Source of the DNA: a virus | Taxonomy: Duplodnaviria; Caudoviricetes | Virus record (IMG/VR): IMGVR_UViG_3300005077_000032 | Span: 1-44,742 of that record | Length of the DNA stretch: 44,742 nt | Reading direction: 5' to 3' (one strand) | Part shown: one piece after another, positions 1-44,742 of the stretch | Position numbering within the stretch: position 1 is the first letter of the stretch | Layout: each line of letters begins with the position of its first letter | The notes under the pieces: generated by a model | The model's input: only the letters and a program-made list of their open reading frames with translations | The model's database searches: none | Told to the model about the DNA's origin: nothing | Position numbers and translations under genes: made by a program

Positions 1-4
1 ATTT

Positions 5-118
5 ATGAAGATGAGAATTACCACAAAAGAAAATCCACAAAGAATGACCAAAGAAGATATCTTCTTATTAATCAATACAAAATATGATGAATATAAAAAG
101 ATGATCGGAGTAGAATAA
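5..118 (+). CDS. Small hypothetical protein (may extend upstream of the window)
   Basis: MKMRITTKENPQRMTKEDIFLL...GVE*; TAA overlaps the next ATG (TAATG). Confidence 0.45.
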   Translation: MKMRITTKENPQRMTKEDIFLLINTKYDEYKKMIGVE

Positions 119-291
119 TGGAACCATTTACAGTTGGAGCATTATTAGGAGCAATGTATTATTGATCAAATAGAGAGAATAAGAAAAAAGAATATTCTCC
201 TCCAAAGAGAGAAGGTCATATATGAGTTAATCACAAGGGAGTATTCTATAGCATTCCAGATCGTGATACACACTATGTAAAGGAAATATAA
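118..291 (+). CDS. Small hypothetical protein with hydrophobic N-terminus
   Basis: MEPFTVGALLGAMYYW...; 2 in-frame TGA; fills the gap between neighbours exactly under code 4. Confidence 0.6.
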
Positions 292-293
292 TC

Positions 294-560
294 ATGCAAC
301 TCTATAAACTACACACATTTATTTACAAAGATAAAATAAGAAACGTATTCGTAACTGAATCAGATGATCACCTACTAGCAGGATATGAAATACCAGATGA
401 CAAGTATAAAGACTTCTTAATTGAAGAGTTAAGCAAGACATTTGCACTATTAGAAATGAATCAAAAAGTAGCATTTGCAAGAATGTTGGAGAATCTCAAA
501 AAAAATAATCTATTAACATTCAAAAAGTATAAAAAAAATGAAATAAAAAGGACAAGATAA
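294..560 (+). CDS. Hypothetical protein
   Basis: 88 aa ORF with upstream AAGGA; no Trp. Confidence 0.65.
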   Translation: MQLYKLHTFIYKDKIRNVFVTESDDHLLAGYEIPDDKYKDFLIEELSKTFALLEMNQKVAFARMLENLKKNNLLTFKKYKKNEIKRTR

Positions 561-562
561 TT

Positions 563-940
563 ATGGCATGAATACTAGGAATATTGCTATTTATAAGCAT
601 TGGAATCAATATATTTCAATATAAAACAATAAAACTAAGGACAATGAACTTTGGAAAACAAATTAATATATTAAATGCAAGATTTATGAAGATAATGGAA
701 AGGTATGAAATGATGGTATTGTTTATGGATGGTATCGTAAACAATCCAAGATATGCTGAAACTTATGTGAAGTTCGATCCAATCATTCAAGAGATCATCA
801 ACAAGATAAGAGACTTTCAGACAACTTTGGTTAATATATTCAATGTAAAACTTGATGAAATTGAAGACAATGAAGACGCTACTGTGCCTCAAGATTTACA
901 GCAAGGAGAAAGAATACATGAAGAAAGTAGAAATCAATAA
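563..940 (+). CDS. Hypothetical membrane-anchored coiled-coil protein
   Basis: With TGA=Trp it starts at ATG 563: MAWILGILLFISIGINIFQY (one TM helix), then a helical region. Confidence 0.65.
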
Positions 941-1676
941 TAAAGGAATATATTGACCTGATGAAGTTGATGAAGCAATTTGATTGTTCATAGATGAAAA
1001 GAATGAAGAAGAAAGAAACAGGATTTATAGCAAGTATATTCACAATGCATTGACTAGCTTGATAGATGCATTGATTCATAAGTTCAAGTTCAATGGATTG
1101 GAAGGAAGTGAAATAGATGTAGATTGATTAAGATCAGAATGCTATTTGAAGTTTCTGGAAATCATAGACAAGGGTTATTTAGATCCATCCAAAGGTAGAC
1201 CTTTCAATTATCTCACTTCAGTATTGAAGTTTCACATGATAGCGGTTAGAAAGCTATCTCACAAGCAGAAGTTGATATTGGAATCGAATTACTTTGGAAA
1301 TGAAGAATTCATCTATAATGAAAGTGAATCCGAAGAGGATTATTTTCCAATAGAAAGAGCGATTTCCATATTGGAAGAAGAAGAGGAAGAAGAGGATGCA
1401 TCACTCATAACTTATGCCAAAATCATGGAATATTTAAAAGATGATATAAAGAATAATCGATTTGCTTCCACAAAGGAAGGTATATTTGCTCAACAACTAT
1501 TGGAATTAATGGAATCATTGCAGAAATTTACATTTCAAAACAAGTTCTTTATCAAGTTCATGTTGAGGGAATTGTCTACTACAGCAGGATGCTCGATGAA
1601 ACCTTTCACGATCAATTACTATCTATTGAAATTCTGAAAGAGATATAAGAAGAGAATGCAGTCAGAATTGAATTAA
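918..1676 (+). CDS. Phage late-transcription sigma factor (T4 gp55-like, sigma region 2)
   Basis: ...DEAIWLF...ERNRIYSKYIH...DWLRSECYLKFLE...LDPSKGRPFNYLTSVLK matches the sigma region-2 FDPxKGxxFxY pattern; SD AAGGAG upstream; 4 in-frame TGA. Confidence 0.7.
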
Positions 1677-1758
1677 AGATAATTATACAGTTTTTTTTGT
1701 CAAACCCGGATATATCCAGTAATTTCATTTTTATCTGTATGAATTATTCTATATTATC

Positions 1759-1793
1759 AGTGGTAGTATATATATACTAATAGTGGTAGTATA
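1759..1793. repeat. Direct repeat AGTGGTAGTATA x2 overlapping the perfect palindrome TAGTATATATATACTA (1764-1779)
   Basis: Read directly: copies at 1759-1770 and 1782-1793, just upstream of the AGGAG SD of the HNH gene. Confidence 0.85.
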
Positions 1794-2471: not shown

Positions 2472-2497
2472 AGCAAATCCAAACAAGGAGAATGATC

Positions 2498-2905
2498 ATG
2501 AAGAAGCTTCAGAGTGCTGCCGAAGTGATGGCAAATCTTATGGATGGTGTCAAGATTGCAAAGAGTAATTGGTCTAATGCTTTAAATTGTTATGTTACAA
2601 TATACAATGGCAGGATTGTAATTGTCAACTCTGAGACATATGAAATAAATGATTTTGATGGATCATTCAATGATGATAATTGGTATGTTTGGGAAAAGCC
2701 GATTGTCAAGTTTGATTTCATGACTGCCGTAAGGTATATGGGAGATGGCAAGAAGGTTAGAGTTTGTGACGGTGATAATGATTATGTTTATTATAAAGAT
2801 GATGATGGTGAAATTGTGATGATTGATGTTGATGGTGATTGTTGGCCCGCGAATTTCTACGATTATCAAAGCATGTCCGATCAATGGTATATTCATGAAG
2901 ATTAA
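2498..2905 (+). CDS. Acidic protein with two tandem DUF2829/Tad2-like repeats; putative early anti-defence protein
   Basis: Repeat 1 AEVMANLMDGVKIAKSNW...DDNWYV; repeat 2 FDFMTAVRYMGDGKKVR...SDQWYI; all 5 Trp are TGG; own promoter and terminator. Confidence 0.6.
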   Translation: MKKLQSAAEVMANLMDGVKIAKSNWSNALNCYVTIYNGRIVIVNSETYEINDFDGSFNDDNWYVWEKPIVKFDFMTAVRYMGDGKKVRVCDGDNDYVYYKDDDGEIVMIDVDGDCWPANFYDYQSMSDQWYIHED

Positions 2906-4568: not shown

Positions 4569-5420
4569 ATGAACATGTATGAAAGATTGATAAATGAAAT
4601 TTTGATGATGGAAGGTCTTCGATCTGCCAAGAAGAGATTCAATGCTATTGTTTGCGATGAATTTATTGAAAAAATTGCTGAAATATGCGATCCTTCCAAG
4701 ACAAAGAAATACACTGAATGAATCGTTCATCAATTCATCAAGAGCGTGGAAAAAAATAAAGTTGATGGTTCATATTCATTTTCTAAATGGATCGCTTTTG
4801 ATAACATTTATGAAATTTCCAAAAAATTTTCTGAAGAATTTGATCAATGAAAGAAATGAGGAATTTTTGATTGATCAATTGATTGGTTGCCGAAATATGA
4901 TCTCTGCGTAAATCGAAAATTGATAACTGGAAAGGATGCTGACATTTACAGTTATGACATGGAATCGCAAAGCGACATGGCAAGATTTAATAAAATTTTA
5001 CGAAATGCCATAAATAAGATCAATCAAAGAAATTTGGAGAAGGTTCCACACGCTCAACGATTTCAATACGAGGACAGTCAGATTTTTTTCGTGAAAACGA
5101 GAGAGCAAGCTTGCAAATATGGGTACAGAACCACTTGATGCACATCTTCGATCAATGCTCCAAATCCTTTTAACGACTATAATTCAAAATTCTATGTATT
5201 TTTTGTCGTGAACAATAACAAAAAATACATGGTCATGGTGTCAAAAAATAAAAGATTTTTGGCAATCGAAGATGATGATTTACCATTTTATACAGACAGT
5301 GTTGAAGTTTGAAATCAAAAAAACGAACGACTAGATATGAAGGATATGAAGAGCTTCTTTGACAACATTATTCCTTTTAAATTCTTTAAAGATATCATCA
5401 AAAAGGAAATTGATAACTAA
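4569..5420 (+). CDS. DPxPxKKY/WC-module protein, copy 1 (putative internal head/injected protein)
   Basis: MMEGLRSA...DPSKTKKYTEW...GKDADIYSY...ACKYGYRTTWCTS; 283 aa under code 4. Confidence 0.8.
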
Positions 5421-5431
5421 AGGAAATTGAT

Positions 5432-6187
5432 ATGACGATTTATGAACGATTGATTTCAGAGATTTATTTAATGGAAGGACTTCGATCTGCTCTGAAAAGG
5501 TTCGGCAATGTGCTTTCGCAAGAATTCATCGAATGAGTGGTCTTGTATTTTGATCCGACTCCTCAAAAGAAATACGCGGAATGAATTCTTCGAGAATTCA
5601 TCAAGAACAAAAATTTCAAAAATGTAAAGGACAATGTGAACAAGATCATGGATAAATTCGAAACGCATTATAATTCAATGCATTTCCGAAGATCTTGATT
5701 TCCATCGGCTCGAAACACACTGAAAAGCTTTGAAGATTTGAAGGATACCAAGCATTTGAAAGGAATCGATGTTTATCAATTTTCTTTTACAGAATTGTTT
5801 CTTCTTGTCCAAGATGCCGAGAAAAAAAGAGACGAAGAAGTACAAAAAAAGAATGAAAGAATGGCGAAGATTTTAGGGCCGAAAGCGGAGAGAAAGCAGA
5901 TTGGAAAATGATTGGTCGTGAAATGTGCGAACATGCATGAAGCCATGTATTGAGGTTCTGGAGCGAACTGGTGCATGTCGACAAAATCAAGATCGAATCA
6001 ATTTGATGCATATGCTAGAACTCATGAAATATTCATTCTCAAAAATGAAGATGAAATGTTTGCCGTATTGGTGGATTGAAGCGATTATGGGGTTCAAATA
6101 TGAACGAAATCAAACGACAAAATGGACAAGGACATCTCGATTGAGAAAATGTTCGGATTCGAACTGTCGAAATTGTATGATTTTTAA
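5432..6187 (+). CDS. DPxPxKKY/WC-module protein, copy 2
   Basis: LMEGLRSA...DPTPQKKYAEW...GIDVYQF...AMYWGSGANWCMS (this motif W is TGG at 5969); absent from the supplied track. Confidence 0.8.
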
Positions 6188-6200
6188 AGGAAAGCGAAGC

Positions 6201-6494
6201 ATGAACATAAGAAGTATGATCAACGAAGGAATCAATTCAGCCATCAAGAAGTATGGCAAGCATGTTGGCCAGAAATTCATTCAAGCGGTCGCGGATGTTC
6301 TAGATCCATCTCCGACGAAGAAGTATGTGGAATGAATCGTTGCCACATTTCTGAGGAGGATCATGATTATATGCAAGGCTTGGATCTCTATGAATCTTTG
6401 ATCATGCATGAATCTTTGATCATGCATGAATCTTTGAACAAACAAACGAATGCATATTATAGATTGCTGGAGGATTAAACATGAAGAGATTTAA
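6201..6494 (+). pseudogene. Truncated DPxPxKKY/WC-module gene (N-terminal ~50 aa only) joined out of frame to another gene's 3' end
   Basis: MNIRSMINEG...DPSPTKKYVEW, then similarity stops near 6350; another frame reads EEDHDYMQGLDLYESLIMHESL...LLED* (TAA 6476). Confidence 0.55.
6390..6437. repeat. Tandem repeat ATGAATCTTTGATCATGC x2.7
   Basis: Units at 6390-6407 and 6408-6425, partial unit 6426-6437. Confidence 0.9.
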
Positions 6495-7188
6495 TTTCAA
6501 TTGAACTCAAGTGCGCGTCAGCGACGATGAGGAGTCGAACAAGATTCTGGCTGAAGAAATTCTTGAAAATGGATTGTACATGCTGAACGGTGGCATGGAA
6601 GCTTGATGCTACGATGTATTGGATGGTGAAGAAGACAGGAAATGATATCATGACGATGCTGGATATTTCTTCATGGTTGCCTATGCCGACGAGGCTCCTG
6701 TCGCTTCAGCCGCATTCGGTCGATCCACGAATCTTTATCAGGTATATGTTGAAAGGGCATATCGATCCTATGGGCTTTCGAAATTGTTGACGAAGATGGC
6801 AAGGAAGCTGTGAAGTCGAAATTTGAAAGCGGTGTATTGAAACCGTCAGGCTGGAAGGTTCTTCAAGAGCGAAGGAATACCACATCTTGAAAATCCAGAA
6901 TATCCAATGAAGGAAAACAAGAACATGACAATATTTGATGAATTGATGAATGAAATAAAAAGATCTCAGGCTTGAGATCAAGTTTCAAGAGGAGAATTGA
7001 AGAAGGCTCTGGATTCTGGAGCCAGAATTCGAATGGTTCATTGAAAACATGCTGCTCCGAATCGATTCGTCTCGATTGGAGACGATGGAAGATACTACAT
7101 TCACGATACGGATAATCCAGAAGTGGATGGACGAACCATATCAATTTATTTATTGTCTCAATTCGATTGGGAGTCGTTGAATGCATAA
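6481..7188 (+). CDS. GNAT acetyltransferase fused to a C-terminal DUF2829/Tad2-like domain
   Basis: QVYVERAYRSYGLSKLL (motif A) and NRQAGRFFKSEG (motif B); then MTIFDELMNE leader and KKALDSGARIRMVHW...LLSQFDWE; SD GGAGG upstream. Confidence 0.65.
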
Positions 7189-8554
7189 GAAAATCATGAA
7201 TGAAGGAATCCGTTCCGCTTTCAAGAAGTATTTAAAAAAGTTTTCGAGGAAGCAGATTGAAAAAATCGCAGAATATGCCGATCCGACTCCTAAAAAGAAG
7301 TATTTGGAATGACTTTGCAAGCAAGCCGTTGATTTTAATTTGCAAGACCTTTGATTCGGTAGTCAGGATGATAGAATAAATGCTTTGTATATGAATTTAT
7401 ATTTCACAACTCTTAAACAATTCGAATTCCTTGTTCAGAGAAATCAATTGGTTGGAAAGGAAGCCGACATCAATTCTTATGAAAGTTATATATCTGTGTG
7501 ACAAAAAGTCAAAGATAAATATTTTGAATATAAACTTGAACAGGGAAAGAAAAATGAAAAGGCACCATCGTTTTGACACAATGGATTTCATATCTATTAC
7601 ATCACGAACATAAGTCAAGCCATCAAGTACGGGGCGAATACGAAATGATGCATTTCGGCAAAGACTGCCACGAATCAATTTGAAAAATATTATGAAAAAA
7701 ATCATATATTCATTTTGATTACGGAAAATGTAAAATATGCCGTTTTAATAAATAGACAAGATTTTCAAAAATTCAATGTTTTCAACGAACAGGATCTCAA
7801 TATTTCTTTGAAATGAGATGTATATCGAACCATTCCCAAAGAGGTGTTCATGAAAATAATCAATCAATCTCCAATCAAGGAGGGAACCAATTCGGCATTT
7901 GCAAAATTCAAGAGACTTCTTCCAAACGAAGACAAAGCATGATTTCATCGTCTTTCCAATGTCGATCCAACTTCTCAAAAGAAATATCTTGACAAAATGG
8001 TTGAATGATTCGCAGTCTATGTGAACAACAATCAGGACATATATGATGTGTGAGATCAGCGTGACAGGCAAGATTTCGAAAGAGGAAAAGATGCGCAAAC
8101 TCGCATGATCGGAGATGCAATACATACATTTCATTATCTGATTAAAAATCATCGAATTTCTGGAAGAGTTGCGGACATTCAATCATACAAGGATTATTAT
8201 GATCTTAAAAGATTCGTTGACGAACAACAATACAGTCTTTCAAATAGACAAAAGAAAATAGCAACAAGCCACAAAGGAGTGGAATTCATTTTCCAGAATG
8301 ACAAGTACATCATGTACAAGTTGAAGACTCCAGAAGCTTCGTCATTTTTCTGCAAGGGTACTGGATGATGCATTCGATTTCGAGATTCGTTCGTTTCAAG
8401 AATCAGTCGTTTGACGAATCTTTATTATATCAATGAAAAGGGAACCGACAACAAATACATTGTGGAGATGATGGTCGATCATTTTTACAGTTGAGTTCAT
8501 TATTCAAAAACTGGAGGGGGCAATGGATTTGGCGATACAGATGAACCTTGGTAA
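7181..8554 (+). CDS. Tandem two-module DPxPxKKY/WC protein; probably extended to 8728 before an internal TAA arose
   Basis: DPTPKKKYLEW...YGANTKWCIS, linker SPIKEG, DPTSQKKYLD...FCKGTGWCIR; TAA at 8552, but the same frame continues protein-like to TAA 8726. Confidence 0.75.
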
Positions 8555-8712
8555 TATTTTGAAGGCATACCGAAGGAGCATTTCAGAAAATTCTGATTGG
8601 ATTACAGTGACTGAAAGTGGAGGCGCGATGTTTGCAAGAAGCATGGAGCATTGGAGAGTTTCAATTTCTGAATTAAGAAATTCATAGAAAACAACAAGCT
8701 GGAGGCACCGGA

Positions 8713-10074
8713 ATGACTGATAAATTAAACGAGGGATATCGAGCAGCATTGGAAAGATATGTCAACAAGTTGAATCAGGAAACAATTCAATTCATTGCCA
8801 ACGAAATCGATCCGTCTCCAACAAAGAAATATACAGAATGATTTTGTGGAATAATATGACACACCTTTCCAGACTGAATGCATGTTTTCAAATATGCCAA
8901 ATGAGACATGGTTTCTACATATAGACCAGTTTTTGAAGAATTTAATGAAATGTGCAAGAAGAAATATATTTCTGGAAGGGCGGCGGACATCTATTCGTAT
9001 AAGAATATAAAAGATCTTCGAGAGGCAGTGGATGCAGCTTATGATCGATACATGCAGAAGAAAAAGATTCCAGTTAAAAAATTTCAATACAACGATTTAT
9101 GAATTCTTCAGATTGAAACCAAGGAACAAGCCATCAAGTATGGTCGCAAAACGAATTGATGCATATCTGCTGTGGTGTATCCGAATAAGTTTCATGAATA
9201 TAATGAAAAATATCATGTATTTATTGTTTTGTATCGAACATTGAAATATTGCGTCTTGATAGGAAGGGAAAAAGCAAAACACATGATATTCGTTTACAAC
9301 GAAAAAGACATTTCAGTTCCATCGGAAGAAGTGTTCAATCATGTTCCAAAAGAAATATTCTTCAACATCATAAATCATGGAAACATGAATGAAAGCTTGA
9401 ACAAGGCATTGGCAAGATACGCTTACAAGCTTGAACCAAAATACATCAGAATGGTGGCTTCAAACATCGATCCGTCTCCGACGAAGAAATATACGGAATG
9501 AATTGTAGACAAGATTGTAAAATATTTCAAACCGCTTCTTGCTCCAACAAAACTGCAATCGGAATATGAAAAATGATTGAGTTTGGAAAATTATTTTAAA
9601 AACATTATCGTTCCGTTTGACGAATTGGTGAAAAATCATGTGATTTCTGGAAGGGAAGCGGACATTTACTCTTATAATAAAATAGATCAATTTTCAAACT
9701 TTGTTAAAAAAAAGCATTATGAATACATCAACAAGAAAAAAGTTCCTGTTAAGAAATTCAAGCATGAAAACTGATGAATCTTGAAAATTGAAAATCAAGA
9801 ACAAGCAATTCGATATGGAAAAGGAACAAGATGATGTTTGTCATCCATCCATCATCGAAATGCGTTTAATGAATACAATGAAAATTGATATATTTTTTAT
9901 CTTTATTGTGGACTTGACAAGTTCACATATCTAATGAACAGGGAGGATAGAAACGAAATAGAAATCTATGACAATGAAGACAATGAAGTCGAACCGGGAT
10001 CTGGAGAATGGATGGATATAACCGATCAAATTCCAAGAAAAATATTCTTGGATATTATTAGGAACAATCGATAA
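8713..10074 (+). CDS. Tandem two-module DPxPxKKY/WC protein
   Basis: Two DPSPTKKYTEW...GRxADIYSY...YGxxTxWCxS units joined by GNMNES; TAATG coupling to the next gene. Confidence 0.82.
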
Positions 10075-11291
10075 TGGCACAGGTATTGTACACATTTGGA
10101 CAAGTTGAAGACATTGCTCCATTCAATCAATTCACAACGATTGCGAGATTGAGCAATTATGCGATTTTTCAAGACAATCTAAACAATTCATTGACTTCGG
10201 ATCTTGAGAAATCATTCCAGTATGTTCAGGTGGTTGGAGAGGGAATGTCTGTTTCTGGAATGATGCAGAAATATGAAAATTTGATGAATGATCCGAATCG
10301 ATACAAGGAATTGATGACCATTCCGGTTGTCACCGTAACAATTCCAACGGAAAATGTTCTTCCGACAACGATCAGTTGCCTTCCATTGTTTGCCGACATT
10401 ATCAAGGCTCCTCAAAAGGGACAATGAGTTTACATCATGGGAATTCCAAAATCAATGTTAGGAATGAATCGAGACGATGGATACATGTTCTATTACATAC
10501 CGTATTCATATTTCTTCAAAACATCAAATAATTTTTATTCCATCACTCCAGACAATGCTGAAACTGGACAGAACGCAAGAAACATATTGTGACCAAGAGA
10601 GGGTTCTACTATCTTTTCCAATGAGAATGGAACTTCATATATTCAATTGGACAACAACGACATTCTCATGTCTTCTGGATATGTTGATTTGGCTGCGAAC
10701 AACAAGAATGTGATAGATACAAAATATGAACAATTTCGCAGAATAAATCCTGTAAATCAGCTTGATGCTTTTATTTACATATCGAAATACAATCGACTTT
10801 GAGAAGAATTGTTGTTCAATTACTTAAAGGAGTTGTATGAAACAAATCAAAATGAACGAATAAATACATACATTGAAAAGCTTTTGGGTGCTAAATCATT
10901 CGAAGAAAGATTGAGAGTTATCTTCAACATAAATCTTTCAAGAAAACCAGCATATGATTACGCACAATCTCCAGAAGAAACGAATGATGAAAACGACAAA
11001 GACTCTGGAATTGCCATCGTTGCAAAAAATATATATTTGACATCTCAGACTCCCGAAGCTCGTTACCATGCAGGGAGAGGGGATCGCATCTTGGACTTGC
11101 TGACAGGTATTGTAATGCATTTGGAGAATGTGAACAGGATGATTCAGAGTCATCAACATTTAGGAACTCCGGCATCCGTCTTGACTCCTGATCCAAGTAC
11201 GATTTCAACCATTGCTCAACTCAACACTTCACTAGCTCAAATAAAAGGAAAGCTCGAATCCATTCTATCTCCTAATATTTTCATATCATAA
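10074..11291 (+). CDS. Baseplate central spike/hub protein (gp5/VgrG-like)
   Basis: OB-fold-like CLPLFADIIKAPQKGQWVYI; C-terminal RGDRILDLL...SHQH (HxH tip motif); adjacent to the gp25-like gene. Confidence 0.68.
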
Positions 11292-11323
11292 ACTATATAT
11301 TTGTAAACGGAATTATATGAAAA

Positions 11324-18511: not shown

Positions 18512-18513
18512 AA

Positions 18514-32918: not shown

Positions 32919-32926
32919 GGAATTAA

Positions 32927-34027
32927 ATGAAAGTTCAACATGACAGAGAATACATATATCATCAAATACCAACCTCGTCAGTTCCAATTGTAGAGAGGAT
33001 AGAATATCTATATGAAAACAATGATATAAAGTTTGATTCTAATAATAATAATGTTCCATTGTACATAGAAGCATTTACGGCAAGAACCTTATCGTCTAGA
33101 ACCGATCCTGACGATAAGGTTTTTTTTAGAGGATTTGATAATGGACATTCATTGTCTGGAAGTTGGTTTTGGGCCGATAATATTTTTTATCAATTACAAT
33201 CACAATTTTTTAAGACAGATGCTTATAATAATAGATCATATATAACAAATCCATGAACTGGAGCTTCTGTGTCTTCTTTACATTGTATTGCTTTTTCAAA
33301 TCATTTATTCAAAGATAAATTGGATAGTTTTAATTCAGATATTATTATTTCAATTACTGGAGATTTGGAAAATTCTTGGTATATTGGATATAGTGAATAT
33401 GATACTACTACATTCATTTATACTTCTGACATGACAACTATGGCTACAATAACTAACCTTACAAAAGCAGAAGATGGATTGAAAGTTCAAGAATGAGATG
33501 ATATGGAATTAGATTATGTCTACATTCAGGCAAAAGTATTTTATAATAGCAATTCGTTTTATAGAATTTCTGGAGTTTTATTCAAAGATTATGGATTGAT
33601 AATGTTGTTTAATGACATAGATTCTTGACCACAATTTGAAACTGCAAGACTGACAAACAAGAATGATAGTAATTTAGGATCAACGGCAAATCCGGCAGTT
33701 TGATGAAATATTCTTGAACAAAGAATTAAATATAATTATGTTCAATATTATTATGATTATAAAGTTACAATCAATATACCATGAGATAGAGCAAATTATA
33801 CATCTAATCAAACAGTAAAAAGTTTAAGTGGAAATTATATGTTTAATAAAATAAATGATCTTAACGAATTGGCAAAAATGGAAAAAACACTTCATCCAAA
33901 AACATATATTTCTACAATTTCATTGATGAATGATAAAAATGATGTAATGGCAATTTGTAAATTTCCACATCCAATAAAAAAAGATTTTTTAAATGAATAT
34001 GATTTTAACATAAGGATTAGAAGATAA
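32927..34027 (+). CDS. Baseplate/tail-collar-like structural protein, paralog 2
   Basis: ANYTSN...PKTYISTISLMNDKNDVMAICKFPHPIKK C-terminal motif. Confidence 0.68.
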
Positions 34028-34413
34028 TGTCAGTACCAAGCGGAATGCAAGTTGGATTACCCGTTAGCGCAGCAGATGTGAGATATATATATGAAGCATT
34101 AACTGCTGGCGAGCAGGAAATAAACATAGGCACTATATTTTTAAATATTATGTGTGCTAGTTCTGATCCTATTTATATTCATTCTTTAGATTTGATAGAT
34201 TCTACTGAATCAAACAGAGAAAAAACTTCGTTAACAGATATAAATGATATATTTAATTTATATAGTATGAGTGCGATGTCAACTAATCATGGTCATATAA
34301 AAAAGATTTCTTGAATAGATTCAAATTTAAGAATTTATAAATTAACAGCTATATGTATGCAAAAAGGAATATCAACATATACTTGAGTAGAAATTTCGAG
34401 AGGAATTGGATAA
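34027..34413 (+). CDS. Hypothetical tail-associated protein
   Basis: TAATG coupling on both sides; N-terminus (ADVRYIYEALTAG) resembles that of the next gene (SHVTSIYTQLTDG). Confidence 0.62.
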
Positions 34414-34826
34414 TGTCATGAATTGAAGTTCCAGCAACTTTATATAGTGATAAAGCAGTAACATCGGATGCGTCACATGTTACTAGTATCTATACACAAT
34501 TAACTGATGGCACAAGAGAATTTATTGCAAATACTATTGTTTGCAAGGATTTTATATGTAATTCTTTTACTGGTTGCGTCTCTGATATGTTTAAATTAGT
34601 ATTACTTCCTATTGATTCTACCATTATAGGAAATTATTCTCAAAATATAGATTATATATTAAAATCACAAGAGTATCATCCAGACAAGTATCAAAATAAA
34701 ATATTAAATTTTGTTGGAATAAATTATTCTTATGCTTATAATAATTTTTCAGCAACTGTTCAATCTTTAAAAAATCAATATAATGTTTGAGAGTGAAATT
34801 TAGTAGGAATTTATCAATGGAACTAA
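34413..34826 (+). CDS. Hypothetical tail-associated protein
   Basis: MSWIEVP... (codon 3 is TGA); ends at TAA 34824. Confidence 0.62.
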
Positions 34827-35734
34827 TATCATCAGTAAATATTCAAAATGGATATACTCCTTATATTAATGCATATACAAATATTTATTCATATTTGACT
34901 GGATATAGTGGTTTTGGAATTGGAGATGATTCATATGCAATATCTGCTTATAGTACAACTGGCGCTATCAATCATGTTATAATTGAAAATCTTTCTGCCT
35001 CTCAAATTTGATTACATGATTCTTCATATGCAAATGGAAATGTAATAAGTGGTAGTAGTACAAGTGTAATTTTTGGAATTAGTGCTGTTACTGGAGATTA
35101 TGGAGTTTATCTTGTCGGAGATCATTTGCAACCAAATTGAGCTGTCACTGCTGATTATGATAATTCTACATATCAAAGAATATTAAAATATTTTTCTTGA
35201 TCTTATTGAATCCAAGATGCAGCATCGGCATCAGTTAGCGGATGTTTTGCGTATCCAACTGATGATATTAATGGAAAAACAAAAGTTGGTGATACAATAA
35301 GCGCATATCCAGCATCAAAATATTTTTGCGTATCTGCCACATCATGAAATATAGATCCGTCAAATTCATTAAATCAAAATGAATCATATTTAATTTATAA
35401 AATAGATAGTGGAGAAAATATATTTTGTTCAGCAACATATGCTAATGGGTCAAATTATTTTTGAGTAGTTTCTTTGAGAGGTATTGCGACTGGATCGATA
35501 GTAGATTGATATCTTTATTTAACAGAAACATGATCTTCAAAAAATACAAGCACTCAATCTGGATCTGGAACCTTTAGAATAGATGATGAAAATATTAATT
35601 CTGCATCTGGAAATACATATGGTGGCACAAGAGGGGACGCTCCAATTACCGGAGCAAGAAGTAGTTTGGCTCAATCTATTGGAAATTCTTCTAACTTTAA
35701 ATGAGTTGAATTTTGTGGAGTAAATTGAATATAA
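34817..35734 (+). CDS. Ser/Gly/Tyr-rich beta-structured virion protein (possible receptor-binding/fibre component)
   Basis: 305 aa open frame under code 4 with many TGA; TAATG coupling downstream. Confidence 0.62.
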
Positions 35735-36630
35735 TGCATTATAATTTTGTAAATAAAAATGATTTTCAAAGAATGACAAATTCCGGCATGTCTGGATATA
35801 ATGGAAGTGTTTCATATTATACTTCTTTTGTTCCAATTGGTAAAAAATCATTGAGAACAAAAGAGCTTCATAGTATTGAAACCATAACTTCTTCTGGAGA
35901 TCTTGCTTTGGTCGGGCCATATTTGATTTCTAGTTCTAATTTTGCTCCATATAAAAATTATTTTGATGGACTATATCCAGATTTCTTTGATTGAGATTCA
36001 AATTCTTCTGCTGCCATCGTGGTTCTTCCTCATGGAGATGGAATTGTATTGCAATCAATTAATTATACATTTAATAATGTAGCGGCAACTGGTTCTGTTT
36101 ATGATTTCTTAACAACTTCGGCAAATGAAAATTTTCCCGTACATTATAAAAAGATAGGATATTTGCAGACAGCTATTGACAATTTGATAAAAGGTTATAT
36201 ATTATATGGTGATGGAGTCTGCATTTTCTTTAATGAAATAGCAAATTCATTAAGTTCATTTGAATCTGGTGATTCCTTACAGTTTTCTACAATTTTAGAT
36301 CAGCACGAAATGACATATAGTTGTTTGGTTGATGGAGAAAAAATTTGATCTTCAAGCAATTCAACATATTGAAGTTCGATAGATGAATCAAATACAGCAG
36401 TTACCAGTTCATTAACCGCTTATTGAAATGAAAATAATTATTCAAATAATACTATTGCAAATAGTGCCTCTGCATGAATGATCATTGAACAAAATGACAA
36501 GCCAGTCTTCGTTACTTCAATAGGACTATATAATAATAAGAATGAGTGTCTGGCGGTTGCGACATTGGCCGAACCATTTAGGATATTGGAGAATTTTGAT
36601 ATAACATTCTTGGTTAAATTTAGATTTTAG
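35734..36630 (+). CDS. Baseplate/tail-collar-like structural protein, paralog 3
   Basis: KPVFVTSIGLYNNKNECLAVATLAEP C-terminal motif. Confidence 0.7.
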
Positions 36631-36637: not shown

Positions 36638-37186
36638 ATGACAAAAGTATTGGGATTAGACATCAGTACATCAAATATTGGAATTTGTGTGTCTGACGAG
36701 AGTGATATCATTTATGAATTCATATCAATTCCGTTAAATAAAATAGTTAAAGATAAAGATCTTTTTAAAAAAGTATCGGTTTTTGAAGTTGCAATCAATA
36801 AGATTTTTGCAAAGCATGACATTTCTCACACCTTCATAGAAAAACCACTTGAATTTTTCAAACAAAGTGAAAGTATGGCTCATACAATAATTTTATTAAA
36901 TTGTTTCAATATTTTATGTCAATATATTCTTCATGGAAAGAAAATAAAGTATACATTGGTATCTCCATCAACTGCATTAAAATGTGCTATTGGAAGAGGA
37001 ACTAAGCCAACCTGAGTCAAGGATAAGAAATCGTGATTGGCAAAGATATTTGAACAAACACATCCTGAAATCGAATTAAAAAAATATGAAAAGGGTAAGA
37101 GCGTCGGAGAAATACATGCAGAAATGTACGATCCAATAGACGCATGAGTGTTGACGAGAAGCATAAACGCGCAAAACATAAAATAG
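36638..37186 (+). CDS. ruvC: RuvC-like Holliday junction resolvase
   Basis: VLGLDISTSNIGI, FIEKP and C-terminal YDPIDA catalytic acids; the last are reached only through two TGA codons. Confidence 0.82.
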
Positions 37187-37193
37187 AGGGTTT

Positions 37194-38141
37194 ATGGACA
37201 AATCAATAATACTTCCAGCATTTGAAGATGCTATGGGATCTTATATAGACAAAGATCCAGAATTTCTTTTCACATGTCCAAACGATGATTGTCCAAGTAG
37301 AGCAAAGGGAAAGAAAAAGTTACAAGTAAATATAGAAAAAAACATGTTTCATTGTTGGGTTTGTGAATTCAAGGGAAGATCTCTGCTTTATCTAGTTAAA
37401 TATCTTAATTTAGATCCATCCATATTGGGATTGGATACCATACCACAAGATACAGATTTGGAATCCATCATTTTAGACAACCCACCAGAAATTGAAATCC
37501 AGCACATGGTAAAAATTCCAGAAAATTACATTTTGATAGATGGATGCAAGGATAAAAAGTCAAATAATTATTTAAAAGCAATGAAATATCTTTCCAAAAG
37601 AGGAATTTCTGAATTTGATATTGCAAAATATAGAATTCATTATCAATTTGATGGTTATTCCGTATTAATTCCTAGCTATAATAAGAATGGAGATTGTAAT
37701 ACATATTTTGTTAGAGGAATTCTTGATAATATGAAGTATATTCCTCCATTTCCTAGAAAAAGTATCATAGCAAATGAAATCTTTATAGATTGGAAAGAAA
37801 AAATATATTTGGTTGAAGGATTTTTTGATGCTATAACTGCTGGAGACAATGCAGTTCCATTGCTTGGATCTTTTATTAAATCAGACCATCTGATTTTCGA
37901 TAGGATATTGCAAAATAGGCCAGAATGTGTTATATTAGCATTGGATAGGGATGCCTTTGAAAAGAAAACATTAAGAATTGCAAATTTATTCCATAAACAT
38001 GAAGTTCCAGTTAAGTTGGTTAGATTTCCCAATGATAGAGATATCAATGATATAGGAAGAAAGCAATTTATGAGATTGGTTGAAGATGCAGAAGTGTTTC
38101 ACAATTTGTATATTTTAGAACATGAATTGGACAATATTTAG
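37194..38141 (+). CDS. dnaG: DNA primase (Zn-binding domain + TOPRIM)
   Basis: CPNDDC...FHCWVC, YLSKRGI, LVEGFFDA, LALDRDA, DIND; both Trp are TGG. Confidence 0.88.
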   Translation: MDKSIILPAFEDAMGSYIDKDPEFLFTCPNDDCPSRAKGKKKLQVNIEKNMFHCWVCEFKGRSLLYLVKYLNLDPSILGLDTIPQDTDLESIILDNPPEIEIQHMVKIPENYILIDGCKDKKSNNYLKAMKYLSKRGISEFDIAKYRIHYQFDGYSVLIPSYNKNGDCNTYFVRGILDNMKYIPPFPRKSIIANEIFIDWKEKIYLVEGFFDAITAGDNAVPLLGSFIKSDHLIFDRILQNRPECVILALDRDAFEKKTLRIANLFHKHEVPVKLVRFPNDRDINDIGRKQFMRLVEDAEVFHNLYILEHELDNI

Positions 38142-38150
38142 GAGTAATTA

Positions 38151-41100
38151 ATGAATAATTGAAAAATAGTTGCATTATCAGATATACATATTAGAACAGT
38201 TAATAGACACGAAGAATATAAATTAATTTTTGAAAAGACATTGCAAGAAATTGAAAAGCTGCAACCAGATTATATCTTCAATCTTGGAGATACATTTCAT
38301 AATAAATTGCAATTAAGTCCAGAATCTATCATTCTTGCAAAATGATTTTTTGAAAAGCTCGCCCTAATTGCTCCAACATATACCCTTGTTGGAAATCATG
38401 ATATGAATGTAACGAATCCAAACAGGCCAAGCTCCGTCAACGCAGTTTTAAATGATATTCCAAATCATTTTATTTTGGATAGCAGTAAATTTATTACACT
38501 GAACAAGCCATCAGATGAAAGAATGGGATTGTGCATAGGTCATTATGCGTTCAATCAACCAAAGAGTGAGTGACCTATAAAGGTCGATAAAAAGCATAGA
38601 AACGACTACATCAACATTGCATTATATCATGGGGCAGTTGACCTATATCAGACGGATGCGGGTTGGCAAGACGATTCTATGATTAAATATAATGAATGCT
38701 TTTTGGATTATGATATGCTATTGTGTGGAGATATTCACAGCACTCAGAAGCTAAACAAAAAAGCGTGAATGGTAGGGAATCTTATTCAACAAAATTTTGG
38801 AGAAGATGTTAACAAAGGATTTTTGTATTTAGAAATTGGAAACAAAGAAGATAATTTCGTTGAAAAACATTCGATATTAAATGATTATAATTATTTGAAT
38901 GTATTTATTCCAATTTCAAAAGTTGAAAATGCAAAAAATGTAATAGTTGAAACATTGGAAGATCAACATATTACAAATAAAAGCAATATAAGAATCGTTG
39001 TTTCTACAAATAATATATTGGATGTGAGTTTTAAAGAAGATATAACATCATTTGTTTTAAACAAATATGGAATTAATCCAATTATTGAAGAAGCGTTCAG
39101 GTTGAACGAAAATCAAATAGAAACAAAAGAAGTCAGAGATAATTATACTCCAATAAATTTTTCAAATGTAAGTTATCAAAATGAATTAATAGAAAATTAT
39201 CTAAAAAATAATTTTACGGTTCCAGATGGAGTTGAATTGAATGATATCTTTAACATAAACAAAGAAATAAATAATGAACTTGGAATAACAAAATCTGATG
39301 GCTCTTCTAGACTTTGGAATATATTAAAATTGGAATTTCAGAATATGTTCCAATATAGTCATGTTGAGATAGATTTTCAAAATGATATGTCTGGATTAAT
39401 TGGATTATTTGGAGATAACGCTTCTGGAAAATCCAATCTATTTAATGCGTTGTCATTCATAATTTTTGGAAAAACGACAACAAATGTTGCTTTTGCAGAT
39501 GTTATTAGAAGTGGCGAAGATTTTGCAAAAGGTCAAGTTTATTTAACAAATGGGGATTCTGTTTTTAGAATTAATAGGGAATTGATAACTGGAACAAGAG
39601 CAGCAAAGCATATAGTTAAATTTGAAAAGTTGGAAAATGGTAGTTGGATTCCGATGAATGAAGAAACTGTTCCGCTAACCAACAAGGCAATAGCAGATAT
39701 CTTTGGATCATTTGAAAATTTCATTCTCACAACATTGTCCGTTCAAAACAATTATTTTTCATTTGTTAGATCAACAAATACGCAAAGAAAAGATGTTGTT
39801 ATGGAAAATTTAGGAATTGGAATTTTCAATTCTTTGTTTGATATATCAAAACAGAAGATAAAGGAGGTAAATGCTGTCATAGATGTTCTTGGAGATACAA
39901 AACCATTACTTACCAATCTTCAATTGCATAAAGATGAAATCAATAAAATAAAAGAAGACAACAAGAGTCAAAAGGAACTGTTAGAAAAATCAACCAATAT
40001 TCTAAAATCAGTAGATGAAAAAGTAAGCGTTTTTTTAAGCAAGATTAAACCAATAAATTGTGTAATTATTGACAAAGACAATATTCAAAATCAAATAAAA
40101 GAATATGAATCTGAAATTAAAAAATTAGAATTGTTGAGATCAAAGATCGAAATGGAAGGTGTTGAATTAAAAGAGAAAATAACAAAATCAAAAGAAGACA
40201 TTAAAAAATTAGTTAATGCTTGCAGAGATCAGATCAATAATTTAAATATTCAAATTGGAATATTAAAAGAATCTATTAAAAAATATAATTCAATAAAAGA
40301 AAAATATGGTGAAATTAATTGTAAAGAATCTACATGCGTTCTTTTGATGCGATATCAAGAAGAAGCAGGAAATATAGATGGTATAGAGGATGATTTGCAA
40401 TTGAAATTACAAAATCAACAAAAATATAAAAAAATGTTGGAAAGATTTGAAAATGAAATGGATTGGCATCAACAATTGGAGAGAATTACAAACCAATCTT
40501 CGGAAGTTGAATCAAAGATCATCAATCTCAATTTAAGAATTGAAAACAAAAAGCAATTGATAGAAGAATTTGACAAAAGCAAGCACATAATTCAAGAAAA
40601 TGAAAAAGTTCAGAAATCAATAGATGATCTTTCTTTCAAAAGAGGAAAAATAGTTGAAATTTTATCTATGGCTAAAGCCAAGATCGAAGCAAATAAAAAG
40701 TTAACCATAGAACACGAAAGACAGATAACAACAATTAATTTACAAATTGAACAATTATTTGAGATGAGAAGAAAAGCAAATGCATTGATTGTATATAGAG
40801 ATATAATGAATCAAAATTCTTTGCCAAATACCATCTTAAATAATTATATTTCAATATTGGAAACGGAAGTTAATAGAATATTGGGAACATCTTTGGGATT
40901 GTCTGTAAAAATATTATTGGACTTAAAAGATGGAAACAAAAAGTCTGAATTGAATATTTCATTTAAGAATATAAAAGATGAGTGGTATCCGATAGAAGCA
41001 TCCTCTGGAGCGGAAGAAATGTTGTTGTCGTTGGCTATTAGAGTGGCACTAATCAACATAACAAGTATAAGTAGATGTAACATGTTAGTTATAGATGAAG

Positions 41101-41273
41101 GATTTGGAAACTTGCATAGCACAAAGATACCAGAGCTTGGCTTGTTGTTTGATAAAATAAAGAGAATGTTTAAGACCATAATCATAATTTCTCATTTAGA
41201 ATCAATTCATGATTTTGTTGAAAAAGCGATTGTGGTTAGTGTTGAAGATAAGGTTTCTAAATTAGTTGTTTAA
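38151..41273 (+). CDS. Fused SbcD/Mre11 nuclease - SbcC/Rad50 ATPase (gp47-gp46-like), 1040 aa
   Basis: SDIH, GDTFH, GNHD, YHG, GDIH phosphoesterase motifs, then Walker A GDNASGKS, coiled coil, SSGAE, IDEGFG, ISH; one frame with 4 TGA; SD AGGAG. Confidence 0.88.
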
Positions 41274-41745
41274 AATTAAGAACAGATGAATAAACACCTT
41301 CGTTTTGTTGCTTATTTTTAAATACTCAATCTAAATAAAATTTTGCTTGATATTTGTCTAAAACATTTCAAAAACTTTCAGATTTCATTCATTGAACATT
41401 TTCAACTTCTGGATATTCTTCCACATCATCTTCATTATATTTAAAATATGAATTGCAACGGAGAGGCGATTTTGCTTCTCTTTCGTTTACTTCATAATAA
41501 AATGATGTTAAAGTGTGTTCCTGTCTTCTTCCGTAAGGAATTGTTCCCATTAATTTCATGTTATTCGGTCTTGTTATGGTTATGTTACATTCTTCTTTAA
41601 CTTCTCTGATTGCTGCTTGTCTTGCATTTTCACCATTATCAATATGCCCCTTTGGTACGGTTCATCCATGTCATCCATAAACTTTAGATATAACATAAGA
41701 ATCCATTGACGGATTGTATATTAATACAGATACCTTTTGCGCCAT
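41257..41745 (-). CDS. Nudix hydrolase
   Basis: WTVPKGHIDNGENARQAAIREVKEECNI Nudix box and EYPEVENVQW; SD AAGGA; 5 TGA; absent from the supplied track. Confidence 0.88.
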
Positions 41746-41799
41746 TAAAACCAATTCCTTTCATATATAATTTTATATAGTACAACTAAAGGAGATTAT

Positions 41800-42060
41800 A
41801 TGGCATTAAATTTGTATGTTGAGCCTCTTTGAAAAGGAGAGCCAGAAGGCAGAATGGTCAATAGATTCTGTAAAAAATACCGCGAATCAGGATTGTACGA
41901 TGAAATCAAAGCAAAAAGTTTTTATGAAAAGCCATCAGTTAAAAGACATAGACAAAAAAGAAAAAAGATGTTCATAAATGACATAGTAAATAAAATACGA
42001 CAGGGAAAGTTAAGACCTAAAAATAAAAGACTGTACGCAGAAATAATGGGAACTAGATAA
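41800..42060 (+). CDS. rpsU: Phage-encoded 30S ribosomal protein bS21
   Basis: RMVNRFCKKYRESGLYDEIKAKSFYEKPSVKRHRQK; SD AAAGGAG; TGA at codon 11. Confidence 0.85.
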
Positions 42061-42398
42061 TGCATCCATATTTTGAAACAATATATATTCCAAGAAATAC
42101 ATTTGGAACTCAGTTGGAATTTACCGTCTATGATTCATATGATCAAAATGAGCCATTAACTTCTTATAGCTCTATCGTACTGAGAGCCTTCAATCCAAGA
42201 AAAGAAGAAGAATTTTCTGGAAATGTTGTTGAATCAATTTCGGGATTGGGATCATCTAATGTTGTTCATTATTTATTACAAGATGGTGATTTAAAAAATA
42301 TTGGAATATATGATTTATTTCTTGAATTTATCAAATCATCCAATGGAACTATCACTTACAAAAATACTGTTCATGCAGGAAGGATTAAAGTAGAATAA
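42060..42398 (+). CDS. Ig-like structural protein (BppU-like)
   Basis: LEFTVYD...VVHYLLQDGDLKNIGIYDLFLEFI pattern; TAATG coupling on both sides. Confidence 0.55.
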   Translation: MHPYFETIYIPRNTFGTQLEFTVYDSYDQNEPLTSYSSIVLRAFNPRKEEEFSGNVVESISGLGSSNVVHYLLQDGDLKNIGIYDLFLEFIKSSNGTITYKNTVHAGRIKVE

Positions 42399-42904
42399 TG
42401 AGATTAAAAGATGTTGTTGAAATAAAAACGGATTTTCCAGAAGCCGATTTTTGATTAATAAGGGTAAATTCTGTAAATATAGTTGGCAAGCCAGTAAATG
42501 AATTCAAAAATACAAGAATTGGTATAAGAGTTATAAGAACTGATATCTTAAATTCTAAATATTTATATTATGCTATGATGTTCTTATGACAAAAGGGATA
42601 TTGAAAAGAAAGGCATTATGGAATGCAAAATAGAGTTAATATTAGGATAGAAGATGTAAAAAATATATCAATTAGTAAAAATGTAAATGAAAATATTATT
42701 GCCAATTTACAACAAGGATTCGATATGTCCAATGAAATTGTTATAGATGATCATGTGCTTTCGCCATCTGATGCTCATGTAATTTTAGCAATATATAATA
42801 AATTAAACAGGTATAATGCTGAACGATTTCTAAACCTTGGAATAATAAAAATGAAAAAGTTAGCATATGCTATATGAGAATGATTGGACAATAGCGTAAT
42901 ATAA
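42398..42904 (+). CDS. Protein with N-terminal restriction-modification specificity (TRD)-like domain and a second helical domain
   Basis: MRLKDVVEIKT...ILNSKYLYYAM...NIRIEDVKNISI resembles HsdS TRD flanks; VNE linker, then ILAIYNKLNRYNAERFL. Confidence 0.5.
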
Positions 42905-42913
42905 GAGGTGTAT

Positions 42914-44266
42914 ATGGATTTATCTAAGCTTACCATGTATGAACGACAGTTCTATGACAGAATTTGTGAAATTGAAAAAAATATGGAGACAGAAAGTGAT
43001 TTTAACGAAATTCATAATTTTTTCAAAGGAATGTGAGATAATTATGACTATAAAACAGAAACAAGACCAGCTATAGTATTATCAACACCAGCAGAAACAG
43101 GAACTTGCTGATTTAGACTTAGGGTTCCATTGTTTAATTTGTTTAAGCATTACGCTGATGAATTTTACTTCATTTATACAGATAGATTCAATATGAATAT
43201 GATGAAATTTGCCGACATCATTATTCAACACAGGGCAAGTCCAATACACGCTTTGATCAATGATATTGAAGGACTATGACCAAAAGGATTCAAAAAGCCC
43301 GCCATCATACACGAAGTTGATGACAATGAATTTGACCTTCCAGATTCACATCCTCTAAAGCCACAATGAATTCAAGCTGGAAAGGATAAAATGTCCAAGA
43401 AGCAAATTCAAAAATCACACTATGTTACAACAACCGGACGAGTATTGAAGATGATCTTCTCCAATTTAAATGCTTTTGACAATATTACCATTGTACCGAA
43501 TGCTTTTAGGTGAACGCAAAAGCAATGAAAAAAACTCTCAGATGAAGAGAAAGAAAATTCAAAGCCAGAAGGCGCAAAGGGAAAGGTCACTATTGGATGG
43601 GCAGGACTTACATCTCACTTTCCCGATCTTATTGGAATGTTAAAAATATTTGAAGAAGCAAAAAATAGCACAAAAGATCCAACAAGTATTCATTTTATTC
43701 TTTCTGGAATGCCCGTTAAGGACATTATGACACAAAGAACAAGTGACGGTAGGATGGTTGAGCTTCCAACTCCAAAAGAACAAACTTATAAGCATAAAAT
43801 AATGTATGGATTTGATAATTTTAAAGGATATATTCCAGTTCTTGGCGAAGACATTTGCACATTTCAAGATGTGAAGGGATTGTTTGATTATGGTGAGTTT
43901 TATGATCAATACGATATAAATCTTGCTTATTTGGCAGAAAAATCAAAATTCAATAAGTCTAAATCGGCTATTAAAGTAATAGAAGGATTTGCAAAAGGAG
44001 CCATATCTATTTGAACTAATTTTGGAGGATATCAAGAATTTTATTACCATCTTCCAGAGGATTTGAAGGATATAGCAACAAAATATATGGCTTGTGAAAC
44101 AGAAAAAGATTTTGCAAAAAATATAACTTATTGAGTCGAACATCCAGAAGAAAGAAAATATTGAGCAGAAAAGTTTCAAAATTATGTCTTAAAAACTTTT
44201 GATATTGAAGAAGTTAATAAAATTAGATATAATCTTTATCGACAAGTCTTAAAGTGTAATATATAA
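42914..44266 (+). CDS. GT-B fold glycosyltransferase (GT4-like)
   Basis: GTCWFRLRVP, IIHEVDD, IVPNA, IGWAGLTSHFPDL, DINLAYL...FNKSKSAIKVIE; SD GAGGTG. Confidence 0.8.
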
Positions 44267-44287
44267 TATGAAAAAGGAACAAGTATA

Positions 44288-44731
44288 ATGAAAAAGACTT
44301 GCAGTGTAATTAAGAAAACCAAAGTTCAAAAAGAGATAGTAAATAAAAAGATTAAGTTCGTAGAAGTAAAATCCATCGACCTTCCAACAATTGTTGGTCA
44401 AGAACTCAAAAAGTTAAACGAAATTGGAGAGTTGGGAATTTATTCAACTCCAACAGCTTCTATAACAACTGATTTAAAAGGCTCTAGACCGCCAGAAGAG
44501 CAATTACATGCAATTATGGAAAAACAGCGCATAGCTGCAATTATCGAATTTTGGAAGAACTTCAAACCAAGCGAGGAAAACATACATATTGAAAGTGAAA
44601 ATACTGCTGTAATATCAGATGGTGCAGGAACTTCATTTGTAATGTTTTATAAGCTAAGTTCTTATGAACCACCAATTGCAACTTGCGAATCCTTAAAAAA
44701 AGTAAACATTGATCGCACAAATTTACCATAA
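44288..44731 (+). CDS. Hypothetical protein
   Basis: 147 aa ORF with SD AAGGA. Confidence 0.6.
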   Translation: MKKTCSVIKKTKVQKEIVNKKIKFVEVKSIDLPTIVGQELKKLNEIGELGIYSTPTASITTDLKGSRPPEEQLHAIMEKQRIAAIIEFWKNFKPSEENIHIESENTAVISDGAGTSFVMFYKLSSYEPPIATCESLKKVNIDRTNLP

Positions 44732-44742
44732 TTTCAAAATTA

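Follow-up and report, generated by a model that had tools for sequence, protein, structure and literature searches.

Phages that read TGA as tryptophan (Trp), following genetic code table 4, have been published: a survey of human and animal gut described code-4 phages of the Jade and Agate clades (Borges et al., bioRxiv 10.1101/2021.08.26.457843). Phage pairs of tryptophanyl-tRNA synthetase (TrpRS) and tRNA-Trp(UCA), AP1 and HF2, have been shown in vitro to decode UGA as Trp (Seki et al., PMC12636597). In this study, we analyzed the virus record IMGVR_UViG_3300005077_000032 (Caudoviricetes), a stretch of 44,742 nucleotides hereafter called the window. The window (1..44742, plus strand) is a fragment of a large myophage genome with 31% GC, in which TGA serves as a Trp codon throughout, and we regard this stop-codon reassignment as close to certain. 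As in the code-4 phages of Borges et al., TGA aligns with Trp, GC content is low and TAA is the main stop; the likeness extends to the recoded virion genes, the presence of TGA-free genes, a size near 200 kb and an inferred standard-code host.

To compare genetic codes, we measured the cover of the window by plus-strand open reading frames (ORFs) of at least 150 aa. It is 0.18 under table 11, 0.90 when TGA is a sense codon and 0.18 when TAG is; in 20 base-shuffled versions of the window it is 0.00 under both codes tested. From the ORF tiling, 45 curated genes (14,500 codons) were chosen, 44 of them on the plus strand. They contain 252 in-frame TGA and 50 TGG codons, with up to 28 TGA in one gene, and end in TAA (38 genes) or TAG (seven genes); the absence of TGA ends is partly by construction, as genes were called under the TGA-sense code. 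TGA is present in 38 of the 45 genes; of the seven genes without it, four encode no Trp. The gene junctions give support that is independent of the code used for gene calling: 29 of 42 are of 20 nt or less and ten are one-base overlaps. A first-pass annotation, made from the letters alone, had proposed that fragments join in frame across TGA into full-length genes ending in TAA or TAG, many of them abutting by TAATG. The curated gene ends agree with this proposal, all ten TAATG sites are in place, and the comparison of coding densities that it recommended came out in favor of the TGA-sense code. TGA represents 83% of Trp codons, a share like that of ordinary A-ending codons (GAA 86%, CAA 81%, AGA 83% of AGA/AGG), which makes it likely that the reassignment is an old one and has ceased to serve as a fine-tuned timer of individual genes.

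Several comparisons identify the residue encoded by TGA. Inside the window, 11 copies of a paralogous domain of about 220 aa, DP(S/T)PxKKYxEW...WC, are found in a region of the plus strand (4569..27840). Their WC motif is written TGA-TGY in nine copies and TGG-TGY in two, confirming all 11 coordinates of this internal control, and another invariant Trp of the domain is encoded by TGA in all 11 copies. TGA likewise stands, as annotated, at the Trp of the WTVPKG motif of a Nudix hydrolase (41662-41664, minus strand) and of the GEW motif of a gp25-like gene (11459). For close relatives, 29 window genes with TGA masked as X were aligned to 11 clade loci (L003, L004 and L008, being duplicates or near-duplicates, were left out). 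Over 350 aligned pairs, window TGA faces TGA 174 times, TGG 30, Phe 29, Tyr 29, Leu 17 and Gly 7, and window TGG faces TGA in 18 of 34 pairs; as a control, window GGA faces Gly in 513 of 826. Counted per site, a relative has TGA at 70 of 99 aligned TGA sites, TGG at 22 and Gly at three.

Outgroup proteins point the same way. The glycosyltransferase gene (42914..44266, plus strand; nine TGA, one TGG) gives the best single-gene proof that TGA means Trp: sites 152, 122, 205 and 200 face Trp in 14, 13, 13 and 12 of 14 outgroup homologues without in-frame stop, and the five other sites face mostly Phe or Tyr, partly Trp, or are variable, Gly never being found. Residue 65 of the fused SbcD-SbcC nuclease (SbcCD), a TGA, aligns with Trp in 30 of 39 outgroup alignments. 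When the TGA sites of a relative's terminase were compared with 73 stop-free outgroup terminases (916 pairs), they faced Trp 590 times, Phe 231 times and Gly 0 times. Site 539 of the baseplate wedge protein (16198..18066, plus strand; six TGA, no TGG), which serves as a clade marker, is Trp in 104 of 111 distant homologues. Public protein clusters of this baseplate gene (P0004) contain fragments of 40-203 aa ending exactly before Trp positions, which are table-11 miscalls of recoded relatives. Two results speak against such a clean assignment: the five other baseplate TGA sites are not Trp in the 111 distant proteins, and over 54 distant primase loci window TGA faces Trp in only 33 of 246 cases (the top residue; Tyr 30, Ala 26, Thr 24), the figure for window TGG in the same alignments being 148 of 266. 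Judging from the alignments, the non-Trp sites lie mostly in poorly conserved columns, and the conserved columns are Trp. The rise in cover, the interchange of TGA and TGG and the conserved Trp columns of standard-code homologues thus bear out the initial proposal that the whole segment reads TGA as Trp. With TGA inside genes at Trp positions and TAA or TAG at their ends, it is very likely, from sequence, that the phage translates by table 4.

Eight relatives of the baseplate wedge protein were found at 44-63% identity, followed by a gap down to 26-30%, and the glycosyltransferase and primase define a similar tight group. The baseplate orthologues P0007, P0009 and P0008 come from contigs of 108, 71 and 45 kb. 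Scanning viral contigs with the baseplate protein and genome contigs by alignment gave no further match, a PhoH scan gave no additional clade record, and the record G000 is the window contig alone. Coding cover rises under the TGA-sense code in 12 of 12 baseplate loci (weakly in L012, whose genes are on the other strand), and six terminase loci of at least 48% identity hold 11-15 in-frame stops each under table 11. TGA/TGG counts are 97/31 in relative G005, 163/46 in G006 and 152/10 in G007. Recoding is common to all close relatives fetched, whose terminases are 49-54% identical; several records are near-copies, so there are fewer independent lineages than loci. In the outgroup, 14 of 14 glycosyltransferase loci use the standard code, as do 73 of 74 terminase loci, the remaining one containing a single stop; among 54 primase loci, L031, L032 and L058 are clearly TGA-sense, and a further seven, most of them richer in GC, gain 0.10-0.22 in cover. 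CheckV completeness of four relatives (G001 20%, G005 16%, G006 22%, G007 18%) implies a genome size of about 200-220 kb for these phages.

TGA is unevenly distributed among genes. In G001, TGA/TGG counts are 68/29 for virion genes versus 7/43 for a block of 18 small genes (p = 7e-11); within this block, 12 of 16 genes have Trp but no TGA, at a similar GC content at third codon positions (GC3) and with Shine-Dalgarno (SD) motifs kept. An insert of four minus-strand genes in G001 contains no TGA and 14 TGG. Counts also differ in L010/L011 (55/1 versus 10/15, p = 6e-9), in L009 (49/10 versus 1/4) and in the window, with 92/13 for virion genes versus 7/7 for three replication genes (p = 0.002; overdispersion p = 0.003). 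These gene sets were hand-picked: two doubtful ORFs were excluded from the G001 small-gene block and one start was moved, which removes four TGA and three TGG, and five doubtful ORFs surrounding the insert were excluded. Use of A-ending codons for Glu, Gln and Lys is 0.67 in the small genes versus 0.79, too small a difference to explain TGA shares of 0.14 versus 0.70. Core orthologues also differ among relatives, a PD-(D/E)XK nuclease having 8/0 in G001 and 0/4 in L011. A conserved gene at 918-1676, without Pfam match, gives counts of 4/0 in the window, 6/0 in G001 (L001:6100-6858) and 0/2 in L011 (L011:6595-7323), and is TGA-free in L009 too. In the window, a 137-aa accessory gene (2492..2905, plus strand; phrog_6670) has no TGA and five TGG, is readable under both codes, and is followed by a terminator-like hairpin at 2938-2957. 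A sigma-70 promoter scan of window positions 1-5000 gave 24 sites for 25.4 expected.

Taken as a whole, the explanation that we consider probable is that a table-4 phage infects a host with the standard code and switches the code of the cell with a predicted tRNA-Trp(UCA) encoded outside the fragment. Small accessory genes that avoid TGA would be made first under the host code. The suppressor tRNA, charged by the host or a phage TrpRS, perhaps with release factor 2 (RF2) damped, would then open the TGA-containing genes, here including virion genes, most replication genes and the gene for ribosomal protein bS21. The TGA-avoiding small accessory genes present in several relatives may point to a standard-code host and a phage-driven switch, and TGA-free genes beside TGA-rich virion genes were taken as a sign of a standard-code host by Borges et al. 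(bioRxiv 10.1101/2021.08.26.457843).

Several observations weigh against this explanation. The L007/L008 subclade has no partition (26/7 versus 18/6, p = 0.76), nor does the left block of G001 stand out (20/16, p = 0.15). TGA also occurs in the replication genes of relatives (primase 2/0, 2/0 and 3/1; SbcCD 8/0 and 4/1). The major capsid gene of G006 (L302:4740-6359, minus strand) has one TGA and eight TGG versus 162/38 elsewhere in the record (p = 2e-5), its orthologue in G007 having 7/1; the TGG preference in G006 possibly arose because high expression selects for efficiently decoded codons. This capsid gene and the recoded replication genes do not fit a simple late-gene gate, and the TGG-only small genes could be recent imports under any host code. 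As the partition is imperfect, the switch, if any, likely takes place early, and per-gene TGA use is probably no fine timer. The decoding parts are a further point. Following a suggestion of the first-pass annotation, tRNA, TrpRS and release factor genes were sought, and none was found in the window. The tRNA search gave no credible tRNA in the window, G001, G005-G007 or G008-G010, and the partial records of G001 and G005-G007 yielded neither a release factor nor a class Ib synthetase; the relatives searched are only 3-22% complete. Relaxed ARAGORN runs with introns on G005-G007 gave ten low-credibility calls, none of them UCA. Since no credible tRNA of any kind is present on these fragments, the tRNA region is probably unsampled.

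A tRNA(UCA) was detected in a second TGA-sense lineage (G002-G004, 19-23% GC) of the same wider group. It is located at G004:C1:1242-1339 on the minus strand (L073/L094), within a cluster of seven tRNAs, and adjoins an amidase gene with five TGA and no TGG. It folds 7/5 and its acceptor has A1-U72, G2-C71 and G73, which are identity marks of Trp tRNAs. ARAGORN labels it SeC; a selenocysteine (Sec) tRNA was rejected given this fold and a score below the Rfam Sec cut-off (38.2 versus 47). Its long variable arm carries a loop with UCCAA, a spare CCA loop common to nine of 14 aligned long-arm UCA tRNAs. This double-arm pattern was found at 82 viral loci, 70 of them with an ARAGORN UCA call; none of the 82 carries clade-specific proteins, only generic PhoH/ClpP-type matches at about 24-49%. 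Among 120 of about 1200 stretches returned by a broader tRNA(UCA) pattern, none belonged to the clade of the window. Whether the two lineages have one origin or two is answered differently by different genes: the primase tree separates them (p-AU 0.037), and the SbcCD (95 and 81) and terminase (99; G004 row 32% filled) trees group both on the same side of a branch, long branches being involved. In a less likely reading, the window clade and G002-G004 would share one ancient reassignment, with a tRNA(UCA) bearing the spare CCA loop and an early switch covering replication genes.

Clues to the host come from the gene starts and from a few genes. An SD-like motif precedes 33 of 44 window genes (background 8%), versus one of 68 in the Flavobacterium phage Immutovirus and 12 of 44 in the Microcystis phage Mel-JY01. 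Bacteroidia ribosomes ignore SD sequences (PMC9976891, PMC7797042), which makes a host from that class unlikely. Relative L008 encodes an M15 peptidase that passes the Pfam cut-off and suggests a walled host; Mycoplasmatales have no cell wall. The host is therefore likely a walled, SD-using bacterium that does not belong to Bacteroidia. Other genes were less informative: bS21 has 57 genome matches at 29-61% identity spread over Marinimicrobia, Planctomycetota, Alphaproteobacteria, Clostridia and others, and neither it nor the NAD synthase of G001 is diagnostic of the host. No match to bS21 was found among phage proteins, and its best solved-structure match has E = 2e-6.

The host itself could use table 4, having lost RF2 and possessing its own tRNA-Trp(UCA); the phage would simply follow, and TGG-only genes would have been imported from standard-code phages. 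We consider this unlikely, although it survives better than the other alternatives. Only three of the 41 Trp-containing window genes lack TGA, and the overall share of TGA-bearing genes (38/45) is close to the 90% given by Borges et al. (bioRxiv 10.1101/2021.08.26.457843) for code-25 phages of code-25 hosts and exceeds the 26-71% that they found where the host uses the standard code; their figures refer to whole genomes and ours to a virion-rich fragment. The replication genes, bS21, PurA, IMPDH and PhoH are recoded in the clade, and the lack of partition in L007/L008 and of any decoding gene on the fragments would also suit such a host. However, in the G001 small-gene block 12 of 16 genes have Trp but avoid TGA at similar GC3, with SD motifs kept, and the varying TGA use of orthologues (PD-(D/E)XK nuclease, gene-918 family) is expected if the border of the recoded set moves. 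The standard code prevails in almost every outgroup locus. Bacteria known to use table 4 live in association with hosts and have reduced genomes (Parks et al., 10.64898/2025.12.01.691617), and the M15 peptidase suggests a walled host. The bolder form of this alternative, an old and almost fully table-4 myophage lineage outside the gut whose undescribed walled, SD-using host itself reads UGA as Trp, seems to us a little less likely still; such a host, if true, would be the first outside the reduced, host-associated table-4 groups.

Alternatively, a standard-code host could be infected without any phage tRNA(UCA), by a phage that blocks RF2, modifies the tRNA-Trp(CCA) of the host or supplies one of its own whose anticodon stem is shortened. 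There is precedent for the latter, as a tRNA-Trp(CCA) with a 4-bp stem reads UGA (Parks et al., 10.64898/2025.12.01.691617), and Borges et al. (bioRxiv 10.1101/2021.08.26.457843) detected a UGA suppressor in just 35% of the code-4 genomes. No tRNA(UCA) was found in the window or in seven partial relatives, and the double-arm tRNA loci share no clade-specific proteins. Nevertheless, the fragments each represent at most about one fifth of a genome and contain no tRNA at all, which suggests that the tRNA region is just missing; genes with up to 28 TGA need near-complete decoding, and the neighboring recoded lineage does have a tRNA(UCA). We therefore hold this alternative to be doubtful. Far less probable is that TGA is a sense codon for Gly (table 25), Sec, Cys or another residue. 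The three sites of 99 that face Gly in at least one relative and the SeC label of the G004 tRNA would fit, but 22 of the 99 face TGG, substitutions are aromatic, the invariant Trp columns of standard-code homologues contain no Gly, TGG alone would leave just 50 Trp per 14,500 codons, and the G004 tRNA falls under the Sec cut-off with a 7/5 fold; the clade and outgroup alignments already contradict it. A sequencing or assembly artefact or mass pseudogenization, to which one paralogue that looks broken by short tandem repeats near 6177-6494 might lend itself, is scarcely credible and refuted by the clade-wide gain in coding cover and the recurrence of TGA positions in independent contigs (70 of 99 sites), there being no excess of TAA, TAG or frameshifts and the genes being full length relative to homologues.

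The other genes of the window were annotated in this framework. The conserved gene at 918-1676 lies a few places upstream of the baseplate block, where a late regulator of this size would be in keeping. In the paralogue region, eight intact genes and a broken copy alternate with baseplate genes; the intact ones hold 96 TGA and 18 TGG. Some domain copies are fused to GNAT-like or zincin-like parts. The AlphaFold model of the domain (pLDDT 88.6) has no match in the PDB, and 26 matches were found among predicted viral proteins, including a structural protein of PA5oct and, more weakly, PcfJ-like proteins; these proteins are possibly virion-internal. The broken copy (6177-6494) ends after its first motif in short tandem repeats (a different frame reads HESLIM three times) and looks like a decayed gene or an assembly slip. 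The gp25-like baseplate gene (11324..11860, plus strand) has a weak Pfam match on its own (GPW_gp25, E = 0.12); the label rests on gene position, which matches a baseplate assembly gene of Immutovirus. A likely tail-fibre/baseplate module (27830..36630, plus strand), heavily TGA-coded, is syntenic with Immutovirus and Mel-JY01. It is followed by a replication block (36638..41273, plus strand) with a RuvC-like resolvase (three TGA, no TGG), the primase (0/2) and SbcCD (4/5), and by the Nudix hydrolase (41257..41745, minus strand; five TGA, no TGG).

The bS21 gene (41800..42060, plus strand; PF01165, 36.3 bits for a cut-off of 27) has a single in-frame TGA, its codon 11 (41830), which precedes the part that matches the family domain. 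Orthologues are located beside SbcCD in G005, without TGA, and in G007, with one TGA at a different site, a few genes from those for terminase, portal, protease and capsid; bS21 is thus a gene of the clade. Beyond the glycosyltransferase, the relatives carry terminase, portal, protease, capsid, sheath and tube genes, labeled from sequence and homology matches. Genes in L008, L012, L001, L011 and L014 include IMPDH, adenylosuccinate synthetase, NAD synthase, ClpP-like, PhoH, DUF1599 and cREC/HAD genes. The terminase matches of L309/L310 and G004 are split by an insertion and the portal-position gene of G006 is unusually long, which suggests that these genes could contain inteins.

These results have consequences beyond the window. 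Gene calling with table 11 shreds such genomes, and public protein clusters already contain the resulting fragments. With TGA at 83% of Trp codons and recoding that reaches replication genes and bS21, the clade is also well suited to distinguish recoding that times late genes from recoding that AT pressure simply fixes as soon as a suppressor is available.

Comparison with known phages places the lineage more precisely. The best cultured matches are Immutovirus (Flavobacterium phage vB_FspM_immuto, NC_055915) and Mel-JY01 (PP395634), with 26-28% identity for the baseplate wedge protein, 36% for terminase and 32-38% for capsid, far below genus membership. Both share the baseplate/tail gene order, and Mel-JY01 also the order of primase and SbcCD; unlike those of the window, their full-length genes are annotated under the standard code. 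The first-pass annotation had described a large T4-like phage carrying bS21. Large size (about 200-220 kb, from relatives) and bS21 were retained, but T4-like holds only loosely: tested on relative G007, the terminase is only 26-29% identical to those of T4-like cyanophages, and the capsid best matches Mel-JY01, RM378 and Immutovirus. Strict T4-like membership was rejected, since terminase and capsid are closer to Immutovirus and Mel-JY01, leaving distant homology only.

The freshwater bS21 phages of Chen et al. (PMC9723584) are similar in being large myophages of about 31% GC with bS21 near terminase-capsid genes. They differ in having bS21 on the reverse strand, genomes of 293-331 kb, Bacteroidetes hosts and, in the accessible text, no alternative code, whereas here bS21 is on the same strand beside SbcCD, with a TGA in the window and G007. 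The same-strand bS21 beside SbcCD and table 4 rule out membership in that group. The combination of bS21 with code 4, which the first-pass annotation held to be uncommon, is less rare than claimed on the side of the code, as code-4 phages have been published, but the pairing of bS21 with recoding is absent from the accessible text of Chen et al. A place among the table-25 phages of Gracilibacteria/Absconditabacteria was also rejected: alignment of TGA with Gly, which would have contradicted the Trp assignment, is not seen at scale (7 of 350 clade pairs, 0 of 916 terminase pairs, none in the glycosyltransferase).

The sequence features of table-4 phages are all present, namely the gain in coding density, TGA aligned with Trp rather than Gly, and TAA/TAG ends. 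The Seki pairs AP1 and HF2 (PMC12636597) show the mechanism proposed here; no such gene was found in the window or the partial relatives, and no code-change module either, unlike in the code-4 phages of Borges et al. (bioRxiv 10.1101/2021.08.26.457843). In genome size the lineage would be compatible with their Jade clade. Replication genes are largely recoded here, unlike in their Agate and crAss examples. A literature search, which covered few subscription papers, gave no paper on a table-4 clade outside the gut or on a long-arm tRNA(UCA). Whereas the Borges survey covers human and animal gut only, the nearest cultured relatives of the window, Immutovirus and Mel-JY01, are aquatic myophages, and table-4 recoding is here extended to a lineage akin to them that the gut survey does not cover. 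The emphasis of Borges et al. is on codes that change from one close relative to the next, but this clade keeps code 4 across terminases that are only 49-54% identical, the code being held over a deep clade instead of flipping between neighbors. What is new, therefore, is the lineage itself, the depth of its recoding and the stability of this code across a deep clade.

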